This document shows, in pieces, positions 19,781-62,497 of a stretch of 64,000 nucleotides of DNA. The DNA comes from Alphaproteobacteria bacterium (lineage in GTDB: Bacteria > Pseudomonadota > Alphaproteobacteria > JABAAW01). Location: NCBI GenBank assembly GCA_965216605.1, contig CBDCGG010000002.1, positions 1,159,871-1,223,870 of the forward strand. The letters run 5' to 3'. A program made the position numbers and the translations under genes. Every line of letters starts with the position of its first letter. Positions within the stretch are counted from its first letter, which is position 1. The notes beneath the pieces are model-generated. The model was given only the letters and a program-made list of their open reading frames with translations. It did no database searches and was not told where the DNA came from.

Positions 19781-21082
19781 ATGTCTCAACCCTCGACTTC
19801 GGAGATGACCTCTTTTTTTAACGATTCTCTTGCTTCTAGCGATGCGGAGATATGCGCTGCTTTGGAGGGGGAGTTCATAAGACAGCGAGATGGAGTAGAG
19901 CTGATTGCTTCCGAGAACATTGTCTCAAGGGCGGTGTTGGAGACGGCGGGATGCGTGCTCACGAACAAGTATGCCGAGGGCTATCCGGGCAGAAGGTATT
20001 ACGGCGGATGCGACCCCTCCGATGATGTCGAGCGACTGGCGATCGAGCGAGCAAAAAAATTGTTCAATTGTCCATTTGCCAACGTGCAACCGCACTCGGG
20101 CTCGCAGGCGAATCAGGCGGTCTTCTTTGCTTTGTTGCAACCCGGCGACAGCTATCTTTCGATGGCATTGGACGAGGGGGGACATTTGTCGCATGGGGCT
20201 TCCGTCAATATTTCGGGGAGGTGGTTCAAGCCTATCCATTACGGGCTTGACCCCCAAAGTCAGAGGATCGATTACGACAATCTGGAGAGGCTTGCTTCCG
20301 AGCATAAGCCAAAGTTGATTCTCGCGGGGGGATCTGCTTATCCTAGGATTATCGATTTCGAGAGGATTGCCAAAATAGCGAAATCTTGCGGGGCGTGGTT
20401 TATGGTTGATATGGCGCATATTGCCGGATTGGTAGCGGGGGGAGTGCATCCTTCGCCGATACCTCATGCGGATGTTGTCACTTCGACTACGCACAAGACT
20501 TTACGCTCGGCGAGGGGGGGATTGATTCTCTCTCACGACGAGGCGATTGGAAAAAAAATTAATAGTGCTATCTTTCCTGGGTTACAGGGTGGTCCTTTGA
20601 TGCATTTAGTTGCGGCTAAGGCGGTGGGTTTGGGGGAGGCGTTGCGTCCTTCGTTTGGGGAGTATGCTAGGGCTATTGTTGCGAATGCGCAAGTTTTAGC
20701 GGAGGTATTAATCAAGGGGGGATATGGGTTAGTTTCGGGGGGTACGGACACGCATTTAGTATTGGTAGATTTACGAGAAAAAGGAGTTACGGGGAGGGAT
20801 AGTGAGGTTTCGTTGGAGAGGGCGGGGATTACTTGTAATAAGAATGGGGTACCTGCGGATGATGCTCCTCCTATGGTTACTTCGGGGATTAGGCTGGGTG
20901 TTCCTGCGGTGACGACGCGGGGTATGGGTGAGGATGAGGTTAGATTAATTGGGGAGTTGATTGTGCGGATTTTGGATGGATTGGCTGTGAGTGGGATTGA
21001 GGGTAACACAAAAATTGAAACAGAAGTAAAAGGAGAGATAATGGAGTTGTGTAAGAGATTTCCGTTGTATCCGTTTGGGTGA
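19781..21082 (+). CDS. glyA: Serine hydroxymethyltransferase
   Basis: SHMT signatures (…[37 protein letters not shown]…, PLP-Lys region [13 protein letters not shown]). The 3' half is strongly C-depleted on the coding strand. Confidence 0.9.
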
Positions 21083-21182
21083 TATAACAGGATAGGAATG
21101 TTGGAAATGTTGGGTATGTTGTCCGCGTTCGTTCGCGCTTCCTTACGGGCTCTCTCGCGTGGACAACGGATGGTGCGTGCTT

Positions 21183-21358
21183 ACTACACCCTCGCAAGCC
21201 AAAGGCTTGCGTATGGGGGGTGTGGGGGGACGAAGTTCCCCCGCAAAAACGCGCCGCGAGCGGGCGCGTTAGCGCCTTCTACGCGCGTAGCGCGTAGCCT
21301 CTTAATACTTAAAAGCGCGTTTCGCAGAAACGCGCAAGCAGCCTTGCGGTTTTACGAT
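21183..21358. repeat. Dispersed modular palindromic repeat, copy R1 (modules B+C, partial)
   Basis: ggggggtgtggggggacgaagttcccccgcaaaa...gcgccttctacgcgcgtagcgcgtagcctctta shared with at least 8 other loci. Confidence 0.75.
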
Positions 21359-21415
21359 GGTAAGAAACTTTGGTTTACATCATCGACTTGGGGAGGGTGG
21401 TGTTTTGCGGTTCTT

Positions 21416-22582
21416 TTGTTGGCAGGGGTTGTAATAATAGCAATTGTTTATCTTTCTTTAATTCCTAAAGATGCCGACACCATTAAGTACTTAGAACTTT
21501 ATGCGGTGATTGTCATTGGACTTATGTCTCTTTATATTGCAGGGTCGAGCTTTTGGGCAAAACAAGGCAGCGCGTTTTTTGTGGAATATCAAACAGCAAA
21601 GGATATGAATGTTGTTGACTTGTTTACATCTTCTAATATATTAGAAGATGCTATTGGCAATCCTGCAAACTCTACCATGCCTTATGTAAAAAGAATCTAC
21701 ATACGCAATGAAAAAAACAAACACGAGGCAATTAAAAGAATTTTATTGCAATTGCCAAACGAACAGACTCTTGTTTTAAAAGAATATAAAAAAGCCGACG
21801 CTCTTCTTATAAAGCCCTATGAAGCCAAGGTATTAAAATTAAATGCGGTAACATTTTATTTTAAGGAATATGACTTGACTCATGTAGGTAGAGGAAACTT
21901 TTTTTTTGATGATAATTTTGTGTATACTATTAAGGATGAAGAAATTCTTCGGAGCGGAAAAATTATTGTCGAAACAGCGCAAGGGCAGTCCTGTATTAAA
22001 AATAATAACAAGCCAATTTCATTTTGCAGCGAAAAGAATTTATTAAAACCAAGTAGATCTTTTTTTGGCATAACTTCCAGCGAACAAGAATTGACTTTTG
22101 GTTTTGATGTTATTTGTTCGCTAGAACTTTTAATGAAAAAAAATTTTGCTGACGATAAAATTTTTAATGACAGCATGCAAAAACAAATTTCTGAATATCC
22201 AAAAATAGCTGAAATGTTTTATAGGAGAGAAGGAGAATTGGCAATTCAAATAGTAATAAATTTATATAATAATATATCCTTATCATACTTTTTCCAAGCC
22301 CACAAAAAAAAATACACCTTACCTGTGCATGCAAATATAAAGAAAGAATTTTATGAGGCGTATAAAAAACATAAATTTTTTCCATTGCCAGCGGTGTTTG
22401 AAAAATCAAAAACCCAAAAAAACCGTATGTCTTTTTTTAATTTTTATTCTTTCTGTGATTCATGGGCAGAAAAAAAATGGGGAAAAAATAAAAGTAAAAT
22501 TTATAATTTTCCACAAGGATATTGCAACCAATTTGCTGTTTGCCAAAAAGAAACAAAAATCATCGACGACTTAAAACCTTAG
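21416..22582 (+). CDS. Hypothetical membrane-anchored protein on low-GC islet (island a); start uncertain
   Basis: About 30% GC over about 1.15 kb against a roughly 62% background. N-terminal TM helix (CFAVLLLAGVVIIAIVYLSLIP) and a second helix, then an about 330-aa K/N/F-rich globular part with no recognisable domain. The six-frame ORF start at 21098 runs through repeat R1 and is rejected; a TTG or internal ATG start is likely. Confidence 0.4.
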   Translation: MLAGVVIIAIVYLSLIPKDADTIKYLELYAVIVIGLMSLYIAGSSFWAKQGSAFFVEYQTAKDMNVVDLFTSSNILEDAIGNPANSTMPYVKRIYIRNEKNKHEAIKRILLQLPNEQTLVLKEYKKADALLIKPYEAKVLKLNAVTFYFKEYDLTHVGRGNFFFDDNFVYTIKDEEILRSGKIIVETAQGQSCIKNNNKPISFCSEKNLLKPSRSFFGITSSEQELTFGFDVICSLELLMKKNFADDKIFNDSMQKQISEYPKIAEMFYRREGELAIQIVINLYNNISLSYFFQAHKKKYTLPVHANIKKEFYEAYKKHKFFPLPAVFEKSKTQKNRMSFFNFYSFCDSWAEKKWGKNKSKIYNFPQGYCNQFAVCQKETKIIDDLKP

Positions 22583-60348: not shown

Positions 60349-60349
60349 G

Positions 60350-60480
60350 GCGTTAAAGCGCTACGCGCGCGTTGTTTTCTTGTCAAAACACAAGTTCCGT
60401 TTCTTGGGTTTTTACCGCTACCAGTTAACATTAATAAACAAAGCAAGTCTGTTGCACGAGCGCAACAGATATACATAAAC
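60350..60480. repeat. Degenerate copy of dispersed repeat (R9; module A-like)
   Basis: caagtctgttgcacgagcgcaacagatatac resembles the gtctgttgcg...cgcaacagac palindrome of module A. Confidence 0.4.
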
Positions 60481-60508
60481 CAACCTTCATTAAGACAAAT
60501 CTATTAAC

Positions 60509-62497
60509 TTAAATCAAATTCCCCTGCGTCTCTTCCTTCTCTCCTTCAAGCACCTCTTCCCCCTGTCCGCACATCTCCAAGAATCTATCCTCGTCCATAA
60601 TCTCCACACCCAACTCTCCCGCAATCCGAACCTTGCTGCCAGGTTTCTCCCCAACAACTAAATAATCCACACCCCCAGACAAACCCACAACAACACGAGC
60701 CCCCGCACGCTCCGCAAACTTTCGTGCCTGATTCCTACCAAACCTCACCAAACTGCCCGTAAAAACTAATGTCTTTCCCGTAAGAGCACTCCTCCTCGTG
60801 TTCTCAACCCCGACCTCCTCGTCCGTAACCTCGATCTCATCCAACAAAGCCTCCACTGCAGAGGCATTTGCAACCTCGGCAAAATAACGCGGAATCACAA
60901 TAATCTCCTCCGCCGTCAATCCATACAATCCAACCGTGTCCTCCGAAACCTCACCTAGCATCGCCTCAAAAAAATTACGGAACGAACAACCCTTCAAACC
61001 CGCTCGCTCCGCAATCTCGCGCGCCCGCGTCACACCCACGCTCGGAATACCCAGCCCATACAAAACACGCGAGAAAACAATTCGCCTGCGACGCTCGATC
61101 ACATCCAACAAGCTGCCGAGCGATTTCTCTTGCCAACCCTCCAACCCTAAAATTTTCTTTCGATTTTCCTCCCTGCCCAACGCGAAGATATCTCCCACCT
61201 CTGCCAACAATCCCTGCTCGCAAAACAACGCGATCGACTTTTCCCCTAACCCCTCTAGGTCGAACGCAAGCTTCGAGGAAAAATGTCGCAAGCGCGCCAC
61301 CCGTTGCGCAGAACAAGAACGATTCATACAACGCAACGCAACATAACCCTCGCTACGCTGTACCGCCGAGCCGCAAGCGGGACAGTGCCGCGGAAAAACA
61401 AACGAGGCAGAGACTTCTCCATCATTCTTGCCGCCAGTCTGTTTTTTATTTTTCGGACGTTTTTCCAACAGCACCCGCTCGACCTTTGGGATCACGCCGC
61501 CTGCTCGCACGATCTCTACCCAGTCGCCTATGCGGATATCCTTGCGTCGCAACTCCTCCTCGTTATGCAGGGTTGCGCGCGCGACGCTCACCCCTCCTGC
61601 CATCACCGGCTGAAGATGTGCGACAGGGGTGAGAACGCCACTGCGACCGACCTGAACCTCGATGGCAAGAACGCGCGTGGTCACCCTGCGCTCAGGAAAC
61701 TTGTGCGCGACAGCCCACAGAGGATGATGACTGCCCTCTCCCAACAAAGCCTGCCAACGCAAGCTGTTCGCCTTGTAGACTAAGCCGTCCGCCTCGAACA
61801 GTAAGTCCTCGCGCCGCGCGCACTGCTCAAAGTAAGTGCGCGACAGTGCTGCCTCGTCCTCGCACAGAAAGGTTTTTACAATAGGCAAGCCCATCGCTGC
61901 CAACAGCTGCATCTGCTCCTCGGCGGTGGAGGCAAGCGGTAACTTCGCCTTTCTATTATCTTGCTTTGCGTCTTGCGAGAAGGCTCCGACTCCCCAGGCT
62001 TGAAAACGCAACGGACGCGAGGCGGCAACGCTCGCATCCAGCTGTCGCAAGGTACCCGCCGCCGCGTTGCGCGCGTTCGCAAAAACCTTCTCGCCCTTAT
62101 GCTGCTGCTCTTCGCACAGCAGGCGAAATTTCTTTTTCTCGATATAGACCTCGCCGCGCACCTCCAAGAAATCGAGCGCGCTCTCGATGCGTTGCGGAAT
62201 GTCTTGAATGGTGCGTAGGTTCAAGGTCACATTTTCTCCCTGCTTGCCGTCGCCGCGCGTTGCTCCGCAAACAAACTCTCCTCGGCGATAGTGCAGGCTG
62301 GCGCTCACGCCGTCTATTTTAGGCTCGACGAGGACAGCCACCGCCGCATCGCTTGCAAGTTTCAAATCGCGCCGAATGCCGTTGAGAAATCTTGCAACAT
62401 CCTCCGCCGAGAAAGCGTTGTTGAGCGAAAGCATGGGCTTGGGATGGCGAACATCGCCAAACTCCGCCTTAAGCTCCGCCTTGAGCGAGCCTCCCAC
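60509..62497 (-). CDS. ligA: NAD-dependent DNA ligase LigA
   Basis: Adenylation Lys motif EPKIDG, Zn finger [19 protein letters not shown], HhH and BRCT regions. 662 aa. The 3' about 1 kb is strongly G-depleted on the plus strand. Confidence 0.9.

Follow-up and report, generated by a model that had tools for sequence, protein, structure and literature searches.

Why does the strand composition of a bacterial chromosome reverse around particular gaps between its genes? The question is raised by the 64,000-nt stretch of alphaproteobacterial DNA analysed here (contig CBDCGG010000002.1; hereafter the window), in which clusters of short repeats and low-GC islands lie between housekeeping genes. 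An initial annotation had described gradients of C-to-T skew beside every copy of a dispersed repeat. We found that eight intergenic sites between 21 and 60.5 kb, here called hot spots, carry a mirror-image enrichment of G+T in the 1–1.3 kb of housekeeping genes on each side. The skew phenomenon itself we regard as solid, and we place moderate confidence in the account of its mechanism. Open reading frame (ORF) and Pfam scans covered the 19.8–62.5 kb part of the window and confirmed the gene labels of the annotation.

Base skew reverses at intergenic hot spots

GC skew was measured on the plus strand in sliding windows of 200–300 bp. It reached +0.45 to +0.76 to the left of the repeat or island clusters and −0.45 to −0.68 to their right, with extremes of +0.6 to +0.76 and of −0.5 to −0.68, and AT skew tracked it, with T exceeding A wherever G exceeded C. 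As a change-point statistic we used D, the skew of the 600 bp to the left of a position minus the skew of the 600 bp to its right. Maxima of D fell at 25947 (0.98), 34603, 39789, 48842, 53305 and 60463, and each peak lay within or at the border of a repeat or island cluster. In the repeat-free stretch from 1 to 19 kb, |D| was at most 0.24, which bore out the earlier statement that regions without repeats are balanced.

When the nine clusters were pooled in bins running outward to 1.5 kb, the left flank gave +0.47, +0.44, +0.31, +0.28, +0.17, +0.13 and 0, and the right flank −0.39, −0.34, −0.29, −0.21, −0.13, −0.02 and 0. Bins of 100 bp showed that the skew of the strand whose 3' end points toward the site drops near-linearly, from +0.5 to 0 at about 1.25 kb. 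The pooled profile was identical for 16 flanks from the window and 27 flanks from its relatives. Amplitude and length were nearly equal on the left and on the right, and the centres were sharp and lay inside the hot spots. The decay over about 1–1.5 kb that had been reported therefore stands (zero was reached by 1.0–1.3 kb), and the pooled profiles, together with those at four-fold degenerate sites, confirmed that on both sides the altered strand is the one with its 3' end pointing at the element.

All of 38 unrelated bacterial ribE loci used as a control had a maximum D of at most 0.37; the ribE loci of the window and of its close relatives L001 and L002 gave 0.89–0.98. We therefore concluded that the skew is not ordinary bacterial sequence. 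Replication skew keeps a constant sign per replichore, whereas at least six sharp flips from plus to minus occurred here within 40 kb. A convergent gene junction at 27.7 kb, which has no element, was unskewed. The 3' half of mnmA (54000–54700) was an exception to the pattern: its skew was +0.2 to +0.46 without an element to the right, where gatC follows directly.

Organization of the hot spots

Gene order across the region was as follows, with a slash at each hot-spot junction within a line.

glyA / ribD ribE ribH nusB / thiL
aldehyde dehydrogenase gene (minus strand) / MR_MLE, HIBADH / BCCT (minus strand) / dnaB alr
mlaE mlaF radA purF SDR / thioesterase (minus strand) ... rplI rpsF (minus strand)
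mnmA gatCAB ... bactofilin / ligA (minus strand)

The features of each hot spot are listed below. The strand given for a flank is the one whose 3' end points at the site, skew is plus-strand GC skew, and "four-fold" refers to four-fold degenerate sites.

20400..21082, plus: hot spot 1 left flank, 3' part of glyA; skew +0.45 to +0.57; four-fold C 0.02, G 0.47, T 0.37
21083..22830: hot spot 1; repeat R1 (~21100–21300), low-GC island, and repeat R2 (22573–22813) inverted relative to R1; inverted repeat I14 (21207–21249 / 22703–22745) plus other families; GC 0.27–0.36
21098–22582: hot spot 1 island ORF, 494 codons, unknown membrane-protein candidate
22831..24000, minus: hot spot 1 right flank, 5' kb of ribD; skew −0.5 to −0.25; four-fold G 0.05, C 0.55, A 0.34, with the same pattern in L001 and L002
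24650..25768, plus: hot spot 2 left flank, ribH and nusB; skew climbing from +0.2 to +0.72; four-fold skew +0.70
25769..26138: hot spot 2; 370 bp of hairpin modules only (R3), no cargo; sharpest flip (D = 0.98 at 25947)
26139..27250, minus: hot spot 2 right flank, thiL; skew −0.33 to −0.53; four-fold skew −0.82
28600..29205, plus: hot spot 3 left flank, 5' end of the minus-strand aldehyde dehydrogenase gene; skew +0.2 to +0.38
29206..32190: hot spot 3; repeat R4 (29280–29720) and low-GC island; GC 0.24–0.34
29731–32121, minus strand: hot spot 3 cargo, candidate defence ATPase (AAA_13 / PDC-S06)
32191..32800, minus: hot spot 3 right flank, 5' end of the MR_MLE enolase-superfamily gene; skew about −0.27; four-fold skew −0.53
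33450..34417, plus: hot spot 4/5 left flank, HIBADH; skew +0.24 to +0.60; four-fold skew +0.81
34418..36826: hot spot 4/5; repeat R4b (34455–34590), BCCT, and repeat R5 (36473–36741) inverted relative to R4b; inverted repeat I18
34704–36365, minus strand: hot spot 4/5 cargo, BCCT transporter gene; unskewed, four-fold skew +0.04
36827..37600, minus: hot spot 4/5 right flank, 5' end of dnaB; skew −0.42 to −0.13; four-fold skew −0.69
38350..39611, plus: hot spot 6 left flank, alr; skew +0.38 to +0.76; four-fold C 0.02, four-fold skew +0.90
39612..42209: hot spot 6; repeat R6 (39629–40117) and low-GC island
40122–40865, 40795–41775 and 41808–42158: hot spot 6 cargo, respectively a Sel1-repeat protein, a T5orf172 / PDC-S57 protein and a small coiled-coil ORF
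42210..43100, minus: hot spot 6 right flank, mlaE; weaker than the others, skew −0.1 to −0.34; four-fold skew −0.39
47700..48791, plus: hot spot 7 left flank, 3' end of purF and SDR; skew +0.39 to +0.76; four-fold skew +0.78
48792..50493: hot spot 7; low-GC island and repeat R7 (50311–50407)
48844–50112, minus strand: hot spot 7 cargo, N6/N4 DNA methyltransferase (MTase) fused to a T5orf172 domain
50494..51350, minus: hot spot 7 right flank, minus-strand thioesterase gene and the next ORF; skew −0.63 to −0.40; four-fold skew −0.75
52484..53900: hot spot 8; 5' end of rpsF on the left (+0.3 to +0.45), repeat R8 (53017–53373), 5' end of mnmA on the right (−0.25)
59800..61500: hot spot 9; 3' end of the bactofilin gene on the left (+0.3), 3' kb of ligA on the right (−0.67 to −0.4)
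60349–60508: hot spot 9 spacer, 160 bp, with one small hairpin (60448–60469); weak fold, z = −1.9

Hot spot 2, taken as single-stranded DNA, had a predicted fold of −104 kcal/mol (z = −8.5); the Pfam match of the NusB protein beside it was weak (E = 7e-9). The left flank of hot spot 3 had a four-fold skew of +0.63 despite its minus-strand gene. Among the cargo, PADLOC matches were to PDC-S06, PDC-S57 and MTase_II, all candidate defence systems. The low-GC islands were themselves unskewed, and where an island lies beside repeats, the flip spans the entire island. Because BCCT and the islands are unskewed, and because R1/R2 and R4b/R5 are inverted around their cargo, we conclude that repeats and cargo form one unit, with the skew outside it. 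The claim that the sign flips at every repeat copy thus held for eight units, with R4b, BCCT and R5 acting as a single unit that is skewed only on its outside. A sign switch within the BCCT gene was not found, neither of its ends being skewed, and what had been taken for a switch within glyA was a gradient without a change of sign.

The hot spot 1 island ORF had no match in Pfam, PADLOC or PHROG. Two hydrophobic stretches in it resemble membrane segments by eye, and its first ~100 codons cross the repeat cluster, so that the true start is probably later.

Neutral sites, strand and base spectrum

Four-fold skew, measured on the strand whose 3' end faces the site, was +0.65 to +0.77 within 450 bp and +0.09 at 1.0–1.3 kb. 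Across the flanks it amounted to 0.65–0.9, and codon positions 1 and 2 gave lower values. Its sign was equal whether the strand in question was coding (+0.8) or template (+0.56 to +0.76). Since the skew is maximal at four-fold sites and the same for coding and template strands, it points to a neutral process and not to an effect of protein or transcription. The position of the site, not the orientation of the gene, set the sign throughout: coding strands were C-rich in ribD, thiL and dnaB and G-rich in nusB, alr and SDR, and the minus-strand genes for aldehyde dehydrogenase, thioesterase, ligA and rpsF took their sign from the site and not from their own direction. The annotation had argued for independence of gene orientation and had excluded transcription-coupled mutation, and the four-fold sites agree with it on both points.

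Near the sites, the four-fold frequency of C on this strand fell from ~0.33 to ~0.05–0.10 and that of A from ~0.17 to ~0.12, and T rose from ~0.16 to ~0.3 and G from ~0.33 to ~0.5. Individual left flanks ranged over C 0.02–0.15, G 0.40–0.63, T 0.18–0.39 and A 0.04–0.18, with complementary values in the right flanks, and distant genes had about A 0.16, C 0.34, G 0.33 and T 0.17. The ratio C/(C+T) rose monotonically from 0.20–0.36 near the hot spots to 0.57 by 1.0–1.7 kb and about 0.68 beyond 1.7 kb; A/(A+G) was 0.15–0.21 near the hot spots and, more noisily, 0.28–0.40 at 1.0–1.7 kb. Four-fold GC content dropped in the flanks from 0.69 to 0.61. In composition, this is what a gradient of damage to single-stranded DNA (ssDNA) would show, with loss of C and A graded by distance and strongest at neutral sites. 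The original description as C-to-T change was accordingly correct in the loss of C and gain of T and too narrow, given that A was also lost and G gained (a keto enrichment).

The lost C had no sequence context. The C:T odds were down by similar factors for each 5' and each 3' neighbour, with no preference for TC, CC or CpG, and this absence of dinucleotide context suggests spontaneous chemistry. An enzyme-mediated, kataegis-like deamination had also been put forward, but with no such context an APOBEC-like enzyme is not indicated.

The bias was also visible in proteins. Relative to L042, an unskewed relative described below, proteins encoded in G/T-rich flanks gained Gly, Glu and Val, and those in C/A-rich flanks gained Gln, Ile, Thr, Ala, Lys and Pro and lost Gly, Arg and Val. 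Protein identity between the window and L042 was 0.51–0.56 in the first 200 bp against 0.6–0.8 further away, a weak trend that is confounded by gene ends and on which we did not rely.

Conserved junctions with changing occupants

The repeats are short GC-rich hairpin modules with stems of 8–22 bp, arranged in mosaic clusters, confined to intergenic DNA and dispersed in both orientations, as is typical of REP/BIME- or MITE-like elements. No Rfam family or tRNA was found as an anchor at the sites. As a single module common to all flips we considered the hairpin CTGTTGCG...CGCAACAG and rejected it, the pairing being present at four window sites and one L001 site only. No transposase domain was found among the ORFs scanned in 19.8–62.5 kb, and the window held no RAYT or transposase gene; no integrase domain was found among the window island ORFs scanned or in the Pfam listings of the relatives' islands.

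A RibE search in species-representative genomes returned two close relatives, both metagenome-assembled genomes of uncultured Alphaproteobacteria: L001 (OZ244186.1, a 1.9-Mb chromosome; RibE 87% identical in amino acids) and L002 (72%), with the next matches at 44%. Searches with DnaB and MnmA outlined a clade of about eight lineages at 71–97% identity, followed by a drop to ~52–56% for other Alphaproteobacteria, several of them Rhodospirillales-like. Wherever they overlapped the window, L001, L002, L041, L043, L044, L046 and L047 had flips at the same junctions, and the pattern recurred in independent assemblies from at least five different samples. The occupants of these junctions differed, as listed here.

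glyA / ribD: a different island in L001; in L002, a 1253-aa gene in place of glyA, its 3' end weakly skewed; a 186-bp spacer with a 49-aa ORF in L042
nusB / thiL: 370 bp of hairpin modules in the window; C5-methyltransferase fragment and tandem repeat in L002; 85-bp spacer in L042
hot spot 3 junction: L001 content differs from that of the window
HIBADH / dnaB: BCCT in the window; DUF8245-OmpA-DUF1664 in L041; genes 158 bp apart in L042
alr / mlaE: R6 and island in the window; genes 68 bp apart in L042
SDR / thioesterase: MTase-T5orf172 in the window; P63C in L046; GmrSD_N in L047; 32-bp spacer in L042
rpsF / mnmA: the same flip in L043, L044, L046 and L047
bactofilin / ligA: small hairpin in the window; 97-bp spacer with a different hairpin in L043; about 740 bp of repeats in L044; ParA-like gene in L046 and L047; flip present in L043, L044, L046 and L047

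Variable, defence-type cargo thus occupied the space between the same core genes across relatives, as in defence-island hot spots, and even the hairpin modules at one same site differed between close relatives. L002 had full-amplitude flips upstream of ribD and at nusB / thiL without any copy of the window's repeat family. The dispersed repeat family, which had been named as the agent, does not survive this comparison: L002 flips without it, the modules vary, and one of the strongest flanks adjoins the nearly empty 160-bp spacer at 60.35 kb.

The relative L042 provided the test that the annotation had asked for, a genome of the same gene order without the repeats. From the type III secretion system (T3SS) secretin to rplI its gene order is the same, with spacers of 30–160 bp and neither repeats nor islands, and local flips were absent from it, its skew being a uniform +0.2 to +0.35 with T exceeding A. 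Comparison of these genomes indicates that the local gradients are derived within the clade and go with long-term occupancy of a hot spot, not with one repeat family or with the present occupant; the unit, on the same comparison, is best described as a conserved, variably occupied intergenic hot spot and not as one repeat family. Occupants turn over faster than a skew at neutral sites can decay (they already differ at a four-fold divergence of ~0.17), and the skew should therefore reflect the long-term average of a site. The strong ligA flank beside a near-empty spacer is explained because the skew represents this average state.

Several further observations were made on the relatives. The stretch L042:1–21617 has a GC content of 0.47, an AT skew of −0.1 to −0.6, and third positions of about T 0.40, G 0.31, C 0.14 and A 0.15, which looks like an unusually strong replication-type asymmetry in a more reduced genome. 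At L002:12007–12285, the nusB / thiL spacer contains a fragment from the N terminus of a C5 DNA methyltransferase, with the motif FSGCGGLDLGF, and after it 4–5 tandem copies of the 15-bp GCTGATCATGAAGCT; it looks like the remnant of a restriction-modification island. The glyA / ribD island of L001 (L001:7290–8530) encodes, on its plus strand, a homologue of the window's MTase-T5orf172 protein at a GC content of ~0.42; it bears the left-flank skew itself (+0.25 to +0.49), the flip being centred on a repeat at 8529–8701, and seems to be an older insertion that is starting to acquire the footprint. Around the equivalent of the rpsF / mnmA junction, L044:172–5760 and L045:1500–4550, both from one sample, contain a head-to-head inverted duplication of mnmA (with gatC), which could be a fold-back assembly artefact or a real inverted duplication centred on a fragile site. 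In L041, HIBADH (L041:5550–6573) and alr (L041:11674–12808) are each represented by two ORFs, both in strongly G-rich flanks; these could be frameshift pseudogenes or the result of long-read homopolymer errors in G-run-rich sequence.

A proposed mechanism and its difficulties

Which process could leave such a trace? By our reasoning, the right strands would be exposed only if 5'-to-3' resection ran outward from the site or if DNA synthesis stalled there on both templates. Outward replication (from an origin, by run-off, rolling circle, strand displacement or a relaxase-type process), outward transcription, and ends-out recombination of incoming DNA would all give the opposite polarity and were rejected. 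Inward forks were ruled out by the 1.25-kb decay and the flat element-free stretches; the idea that each element is a mini replication terminus fails on the same observations and on the lack of a domain pattern. Chi-like sites in the repeats that funnel distant breaks have the right polarity, but their frequency per site, by our own estimate, is far too low.

The account that we favour, and advance tentatively, is that recurrent two-ended breakage and 5'-to-3' resection at the hot spots leave the flanks repeatedly single-stranded. The hot spots, whose occupants (hairpin mosaics and low-GC islands with candidate defence genes) turn over, would suffer recurrent two-ended breaks, each followed by 5'-to-3' end resection and then recombinational repair. 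Exposure would fall on the strand with its 3' end toward the hot spot, namely plus in the left flank and minus in the right flank. Damage to the exposed 3' tails would be independent of context, turning cytosine to uracil and adenine to hypoxanthine and perhaps oxidizing guanine, and would be fixed upon resynthesis of the complementary strand, driving the exposed strand over the long term to G+T richness. The gradient would then mirror the distribution of tail lengths, about 1.25 kb, and the bias would reach codon positions 1 and 2 and so shift the amino-acid composition of the neighbouring housekeeping proteins. We ranked breakage first because the two flanks are near-identical, because the centres turn over without an integrase domain detected among the cargo genes scanned, and because breakage at palindromes is tolerated in E. 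coli. Turnover of cargo and modules is also in keeping with breaks that are repaired from ectopic templates and take up foreign DNA. Breakage with resection had been suggested from the geometry of the skew, and the geometry does fit; it is not unique to breakage, however, in that polymerase blockage leaving daughter-strand gaps exposes the same strands.

A number of points weigh against breakage and resection. We infer the single-strandedness, its origin in breakage and resection, and the base-damage step from the composition of the DNA, and ongoing hypermutation likewise. No gene for a site-specific nuclease was identified in the window. The hairpin content of a site today is no guide to amplitude, hot spot 9 combining a weak hairpin with a strong flank, and L002 flips without the window's repeat family. 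The locally raised substitution rate expected of a break hot spot was not seen: four-fold divergence to L001, L041 and L043 was 0.241 near the sites and 0.262 far from them, and flat for each relative, in a test that is weak insofar as only about a 1.3–1.5-fold rise is expected at compositional equilibrium. Transitions were not enriched, with 48 C<->T differences against about 95 that we calculated for equilibrium hypermutation. The polarised substitutions that the annotation had called for (window against L001, with L002 as the outgroup) gave neither an excess of C>T on the exposed strand nor C>G, parsimony being biased here. In the same data, the apparent net loss of the abundant base might be read as decay of the skew; we attribute it to the bias of parsimony in skewed sequence, which Eyre-Walker reportedly described in 1998, and did not use it. 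Finally, the required rate by our own rough estimate is about 1e-3 to 1e-2 breaks per site per generation, which at about one hot spot per 5 kb would be a heavy load. Part of the shortfall in divergence could stem from differences among flanks, from saturated hypermutable positions, from selection on codon usage and from recombination.

Alternative explanations

Daughter-strand gaps without breakage come second in our ranking and are possible, at clearly lower probability than breakage. Behind the helicase, hairpins or other obstacles would halt the polymerases copying each of the two templates. Where the plus strand is copied, with the polymerase moving leftward, the left stretch would remain single-stranded until the previous Okazaki fragment, and on the minus template the right stretch would remain so until repriming; the exposed template would gain C-to-T and A-to-G changes, or gap filling would be error-prone. 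The polarity deduced in this way matches the observed one, the repeat clusters are strongly structure-prone, and the way in which the skew declines near-linearly and vanishes at ~1.25 kb is reminiscent of a bounded length, for instance that of an Okazaki fragment, which in bacteria is 1–2 kb. Gaps could arise at each replication, so that by our estimate the required rate is easily reached. Yet the two flanks would stem from different processes, a lagging-strand gap and leading-strand repriming, and they are near-equal in amplitude and length; a replisome should not be stopped by hairpins as small as the one at hot spot 9; hairpin clusters are missing from low-GC islands and from the L002 spacers; and cargo turnover is not explained by gaps alone. 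Rather unlikely, in our view, is a strand-asymmetric bias in fixation, in which recombination at the hot spots produces heteroduplex of fixed polarity and G/T alleles on that strand are favoured by biased correction or by selection for G/T-rich 3' tails, which RecA prefers. That synonymous divergence is not raised near the hot spots speaks for such a bias, as does the reciprocity of equilibrium-based rates relative to distant regions (C>T ×2 and T>C ×0.36; C>G ×2.3 and G>C ×0.43; A>G ×1.3 and G>A ×0.7), and the ~1-kb scale is that of conversion tracts. By our own calculation a fixation bias with S of about 0.6–1.7 fits better than equilibrium hypermutation, a further count against mutation in resected tails. 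The known machinery, on general knowledge and by our reasoning, would work the other way: mismatch glycosylases convert T:G to C:G, and MutY removes A, so that base-specific correction would favour C and not remove it. The drop in four-fold GC from 0.69 to 0.61 likewise runs counter to classical GC-biased conversion. Diverged copies would have to recombine often, and synonymous selection of such strength is unlikely in a 1.6-Mb, probably host-associated genome.

The remaining candidates are less probable still. A kataegis-like process, in which an ssDNA-specific cytidine deaminase acts on hot-spot DNA in rare events such as island insertion, could leave a large footprint from few events, and defence islands do occur at the sites. 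We judged it improbable, as C depletion is similar in all 5' and 3' contexts, A is depleted too, the sole deaminase domain in the window is that of the housekeeping RibD, and recently arrived islands are unskewed. Convergent transcription or R-loops directed into the hot spots would expose the non-template strand on both sides, with the right polarity provided that transcription ran toward the site in both flanks, as it does in the plus-strand genes of the left flanks; however, ribD, thiL, MR_MLE, dnaB, mlaE and mnmA are transcribed away from the site and show the full effect, the genes for aldehyde dehydrogenase, thioesterase, ligA and rpsF follow the site and not their orientation, and the element-free convergent junction at 27.7 kb is unskewed. 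This makes inward transcription very improbable. Hardest of all to credit is a replication-type skew produced by local termini or inversions of skewed DNA, or an artefact of assembly or sequencing. L042 does show that the clade can carry a strong replication-type skew, but the decay within 1.25 kb and the long flat element-free stretches oppose local termini, the genes keep the order and orientation that they have in L042, which opposes inversion, the four-fold amplitude of 0.8–0.9 exceeds the ~0.37 of L042, and recurrence in independent assemblies from at least five samples opposes artefact.

If recurrent breakage and resection is the correct account, a broader interpretation is conceivable, and we offer it as a possibility of lower probability than breakage itself. 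The intergenic sites may be recurrent, perhaps programmed, break sites, a bacterial counterpart of recombination hot spots, that serve as integrase-free entry ports for defence cassettes and hairpin modules, and the gradients may record their history of breakage and resection.

Comparison with known systems

The nearest analogue that we found is the human meiotic break hot spot, where, over 1–2 kb, the forward strand acquires C>N and A>N mutations left of the break and the complementary changes right of it (Hinch et al. 2023, PMC7615360); in yeast, resected DNA at breaks is described as hypermutable (Yang et al. 2008, as cited in PMC7615360). The window shares with meiotic hot spots the mirror-image asymmetry about a centre, the loss of C and A, and the scale of 1–2 kb, which at meiotic sites is set by resection. 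Meiotic hot spots show a modest excess of de novo mutation with an APOBEC-like C>G context and a CpG effect, whereas the window hot spots, in a bacterium, have a near-saturated equilibrium composition (four-fold skew up to 0.9) without context, and breaks there are a deduction.

On the H strand of vertebrate mitochondria and the leading strand of bacteria, exposure of ssDNA causes C-to-T and A-to-G changes and enrichment of G and T. The pair of base changes is the same as ours and the amplitude is graded, but that skew follows replication over the whole molecule and changes sign only at the origin and terminus. In the window, 40 kb contain eight bipolar gradients, each extending ~1.25 kb, that follow neither replichore nor gene strand.

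In E. coli, breakage of chromosomal palindromes by SbcCD is chronic and tolerated (PMC3315005, PMC4245961, PMC4213011). There, as in our proposal, a structure-prone inverted repeat would act as a recurrent two-ended break that is repaired from the sister by resection and RecA. The E. coli palindromes are engineered and 246–460 bp long, with no compositional footprint reported; the window modules are natural and have stems of 8–22 bp, and the effect persists at sites with almost no hairpin now or no copy of the family. REP/BIME, Correia and RPE (MITE-like) elements resemble the window repeats as short GC-rich intergenic hairpin modules that form mosaics in both orientations. No flanking skew was described for these families in the literature searched, and the window has no RAYT or transposase gene. 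Genomic islands have been associated with chromosome-scale GC-skew switch sites as favoured places of insertion (Du et al. 2011, PMC3148964). Like defence-island hot spots, the window has different defence cargo at the same core-gene junction, and its islands coincide with changes of skew sign; the switches of Du et al. 2011 (PMC3148964) are chromosome-scale, with no kilobase gradients in flanking core genes.

It is already known that exposure of single strands makes the two strands asymmetric, and palindromic intergenic repeats and hot spots of defence islands are familiar too. In the literature searched we found no earlier account of bacterial intergenic hot spots flanked by bipolar skew gradients on the kilobase scale; the search yielded only the meiotic hot-spot analogue, the work on palindrome breakage, and the chromosome-scale link between islands and skew switches. 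If breakage and resection holds, base composition alone would reveal chronically broken or single-stranded chromosome sites, their reach (~1.25 kb) and the strand concerned, and would do so from the metagenome-assembled genome of an uncultured organism. One mechanism would then link three subjects that are as a rule considered apart, namely local mutation pressure, palindromic repeats between genes, and the hot spots at which defence islands turn over. The cost falls on essential neighbours, nusB, ribH, thiL, alr and the ends of dnaB and ligA having a shifted amino-acid composition, and if the sites are recurrent, perhaps programmed, break sites, the gradients would be a quantitative record of breakage and resection kept at measurable cost to the proteins of essential genes. 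The locus also offers a natural system for asking whether mutation or conversion is strand-asymmetric around sites where recombination initiates, a question that arises for eukaryotes as well.

Other observations

Beside the exceptional G-rich 3' half of mnmA, gatA and gatB were mildly C-rich, and this combination recurred in L043, L044, L046 and L047. The rplI ORF (51371–52201) has 276 codons, ~120 above the usual number, and the L9 proteins of the relatives are also long (258–288 aa); within the rplI region, 51.4–51.6 kb shows an extreme AT skew of −0.64 to −0.76. In the type III secretion region, positions 6173–7500 of the window contain a tandem duplication of ~810 bp, the copies of which are 80–88% identical, with a lowered GC content of 0.45–0.52.

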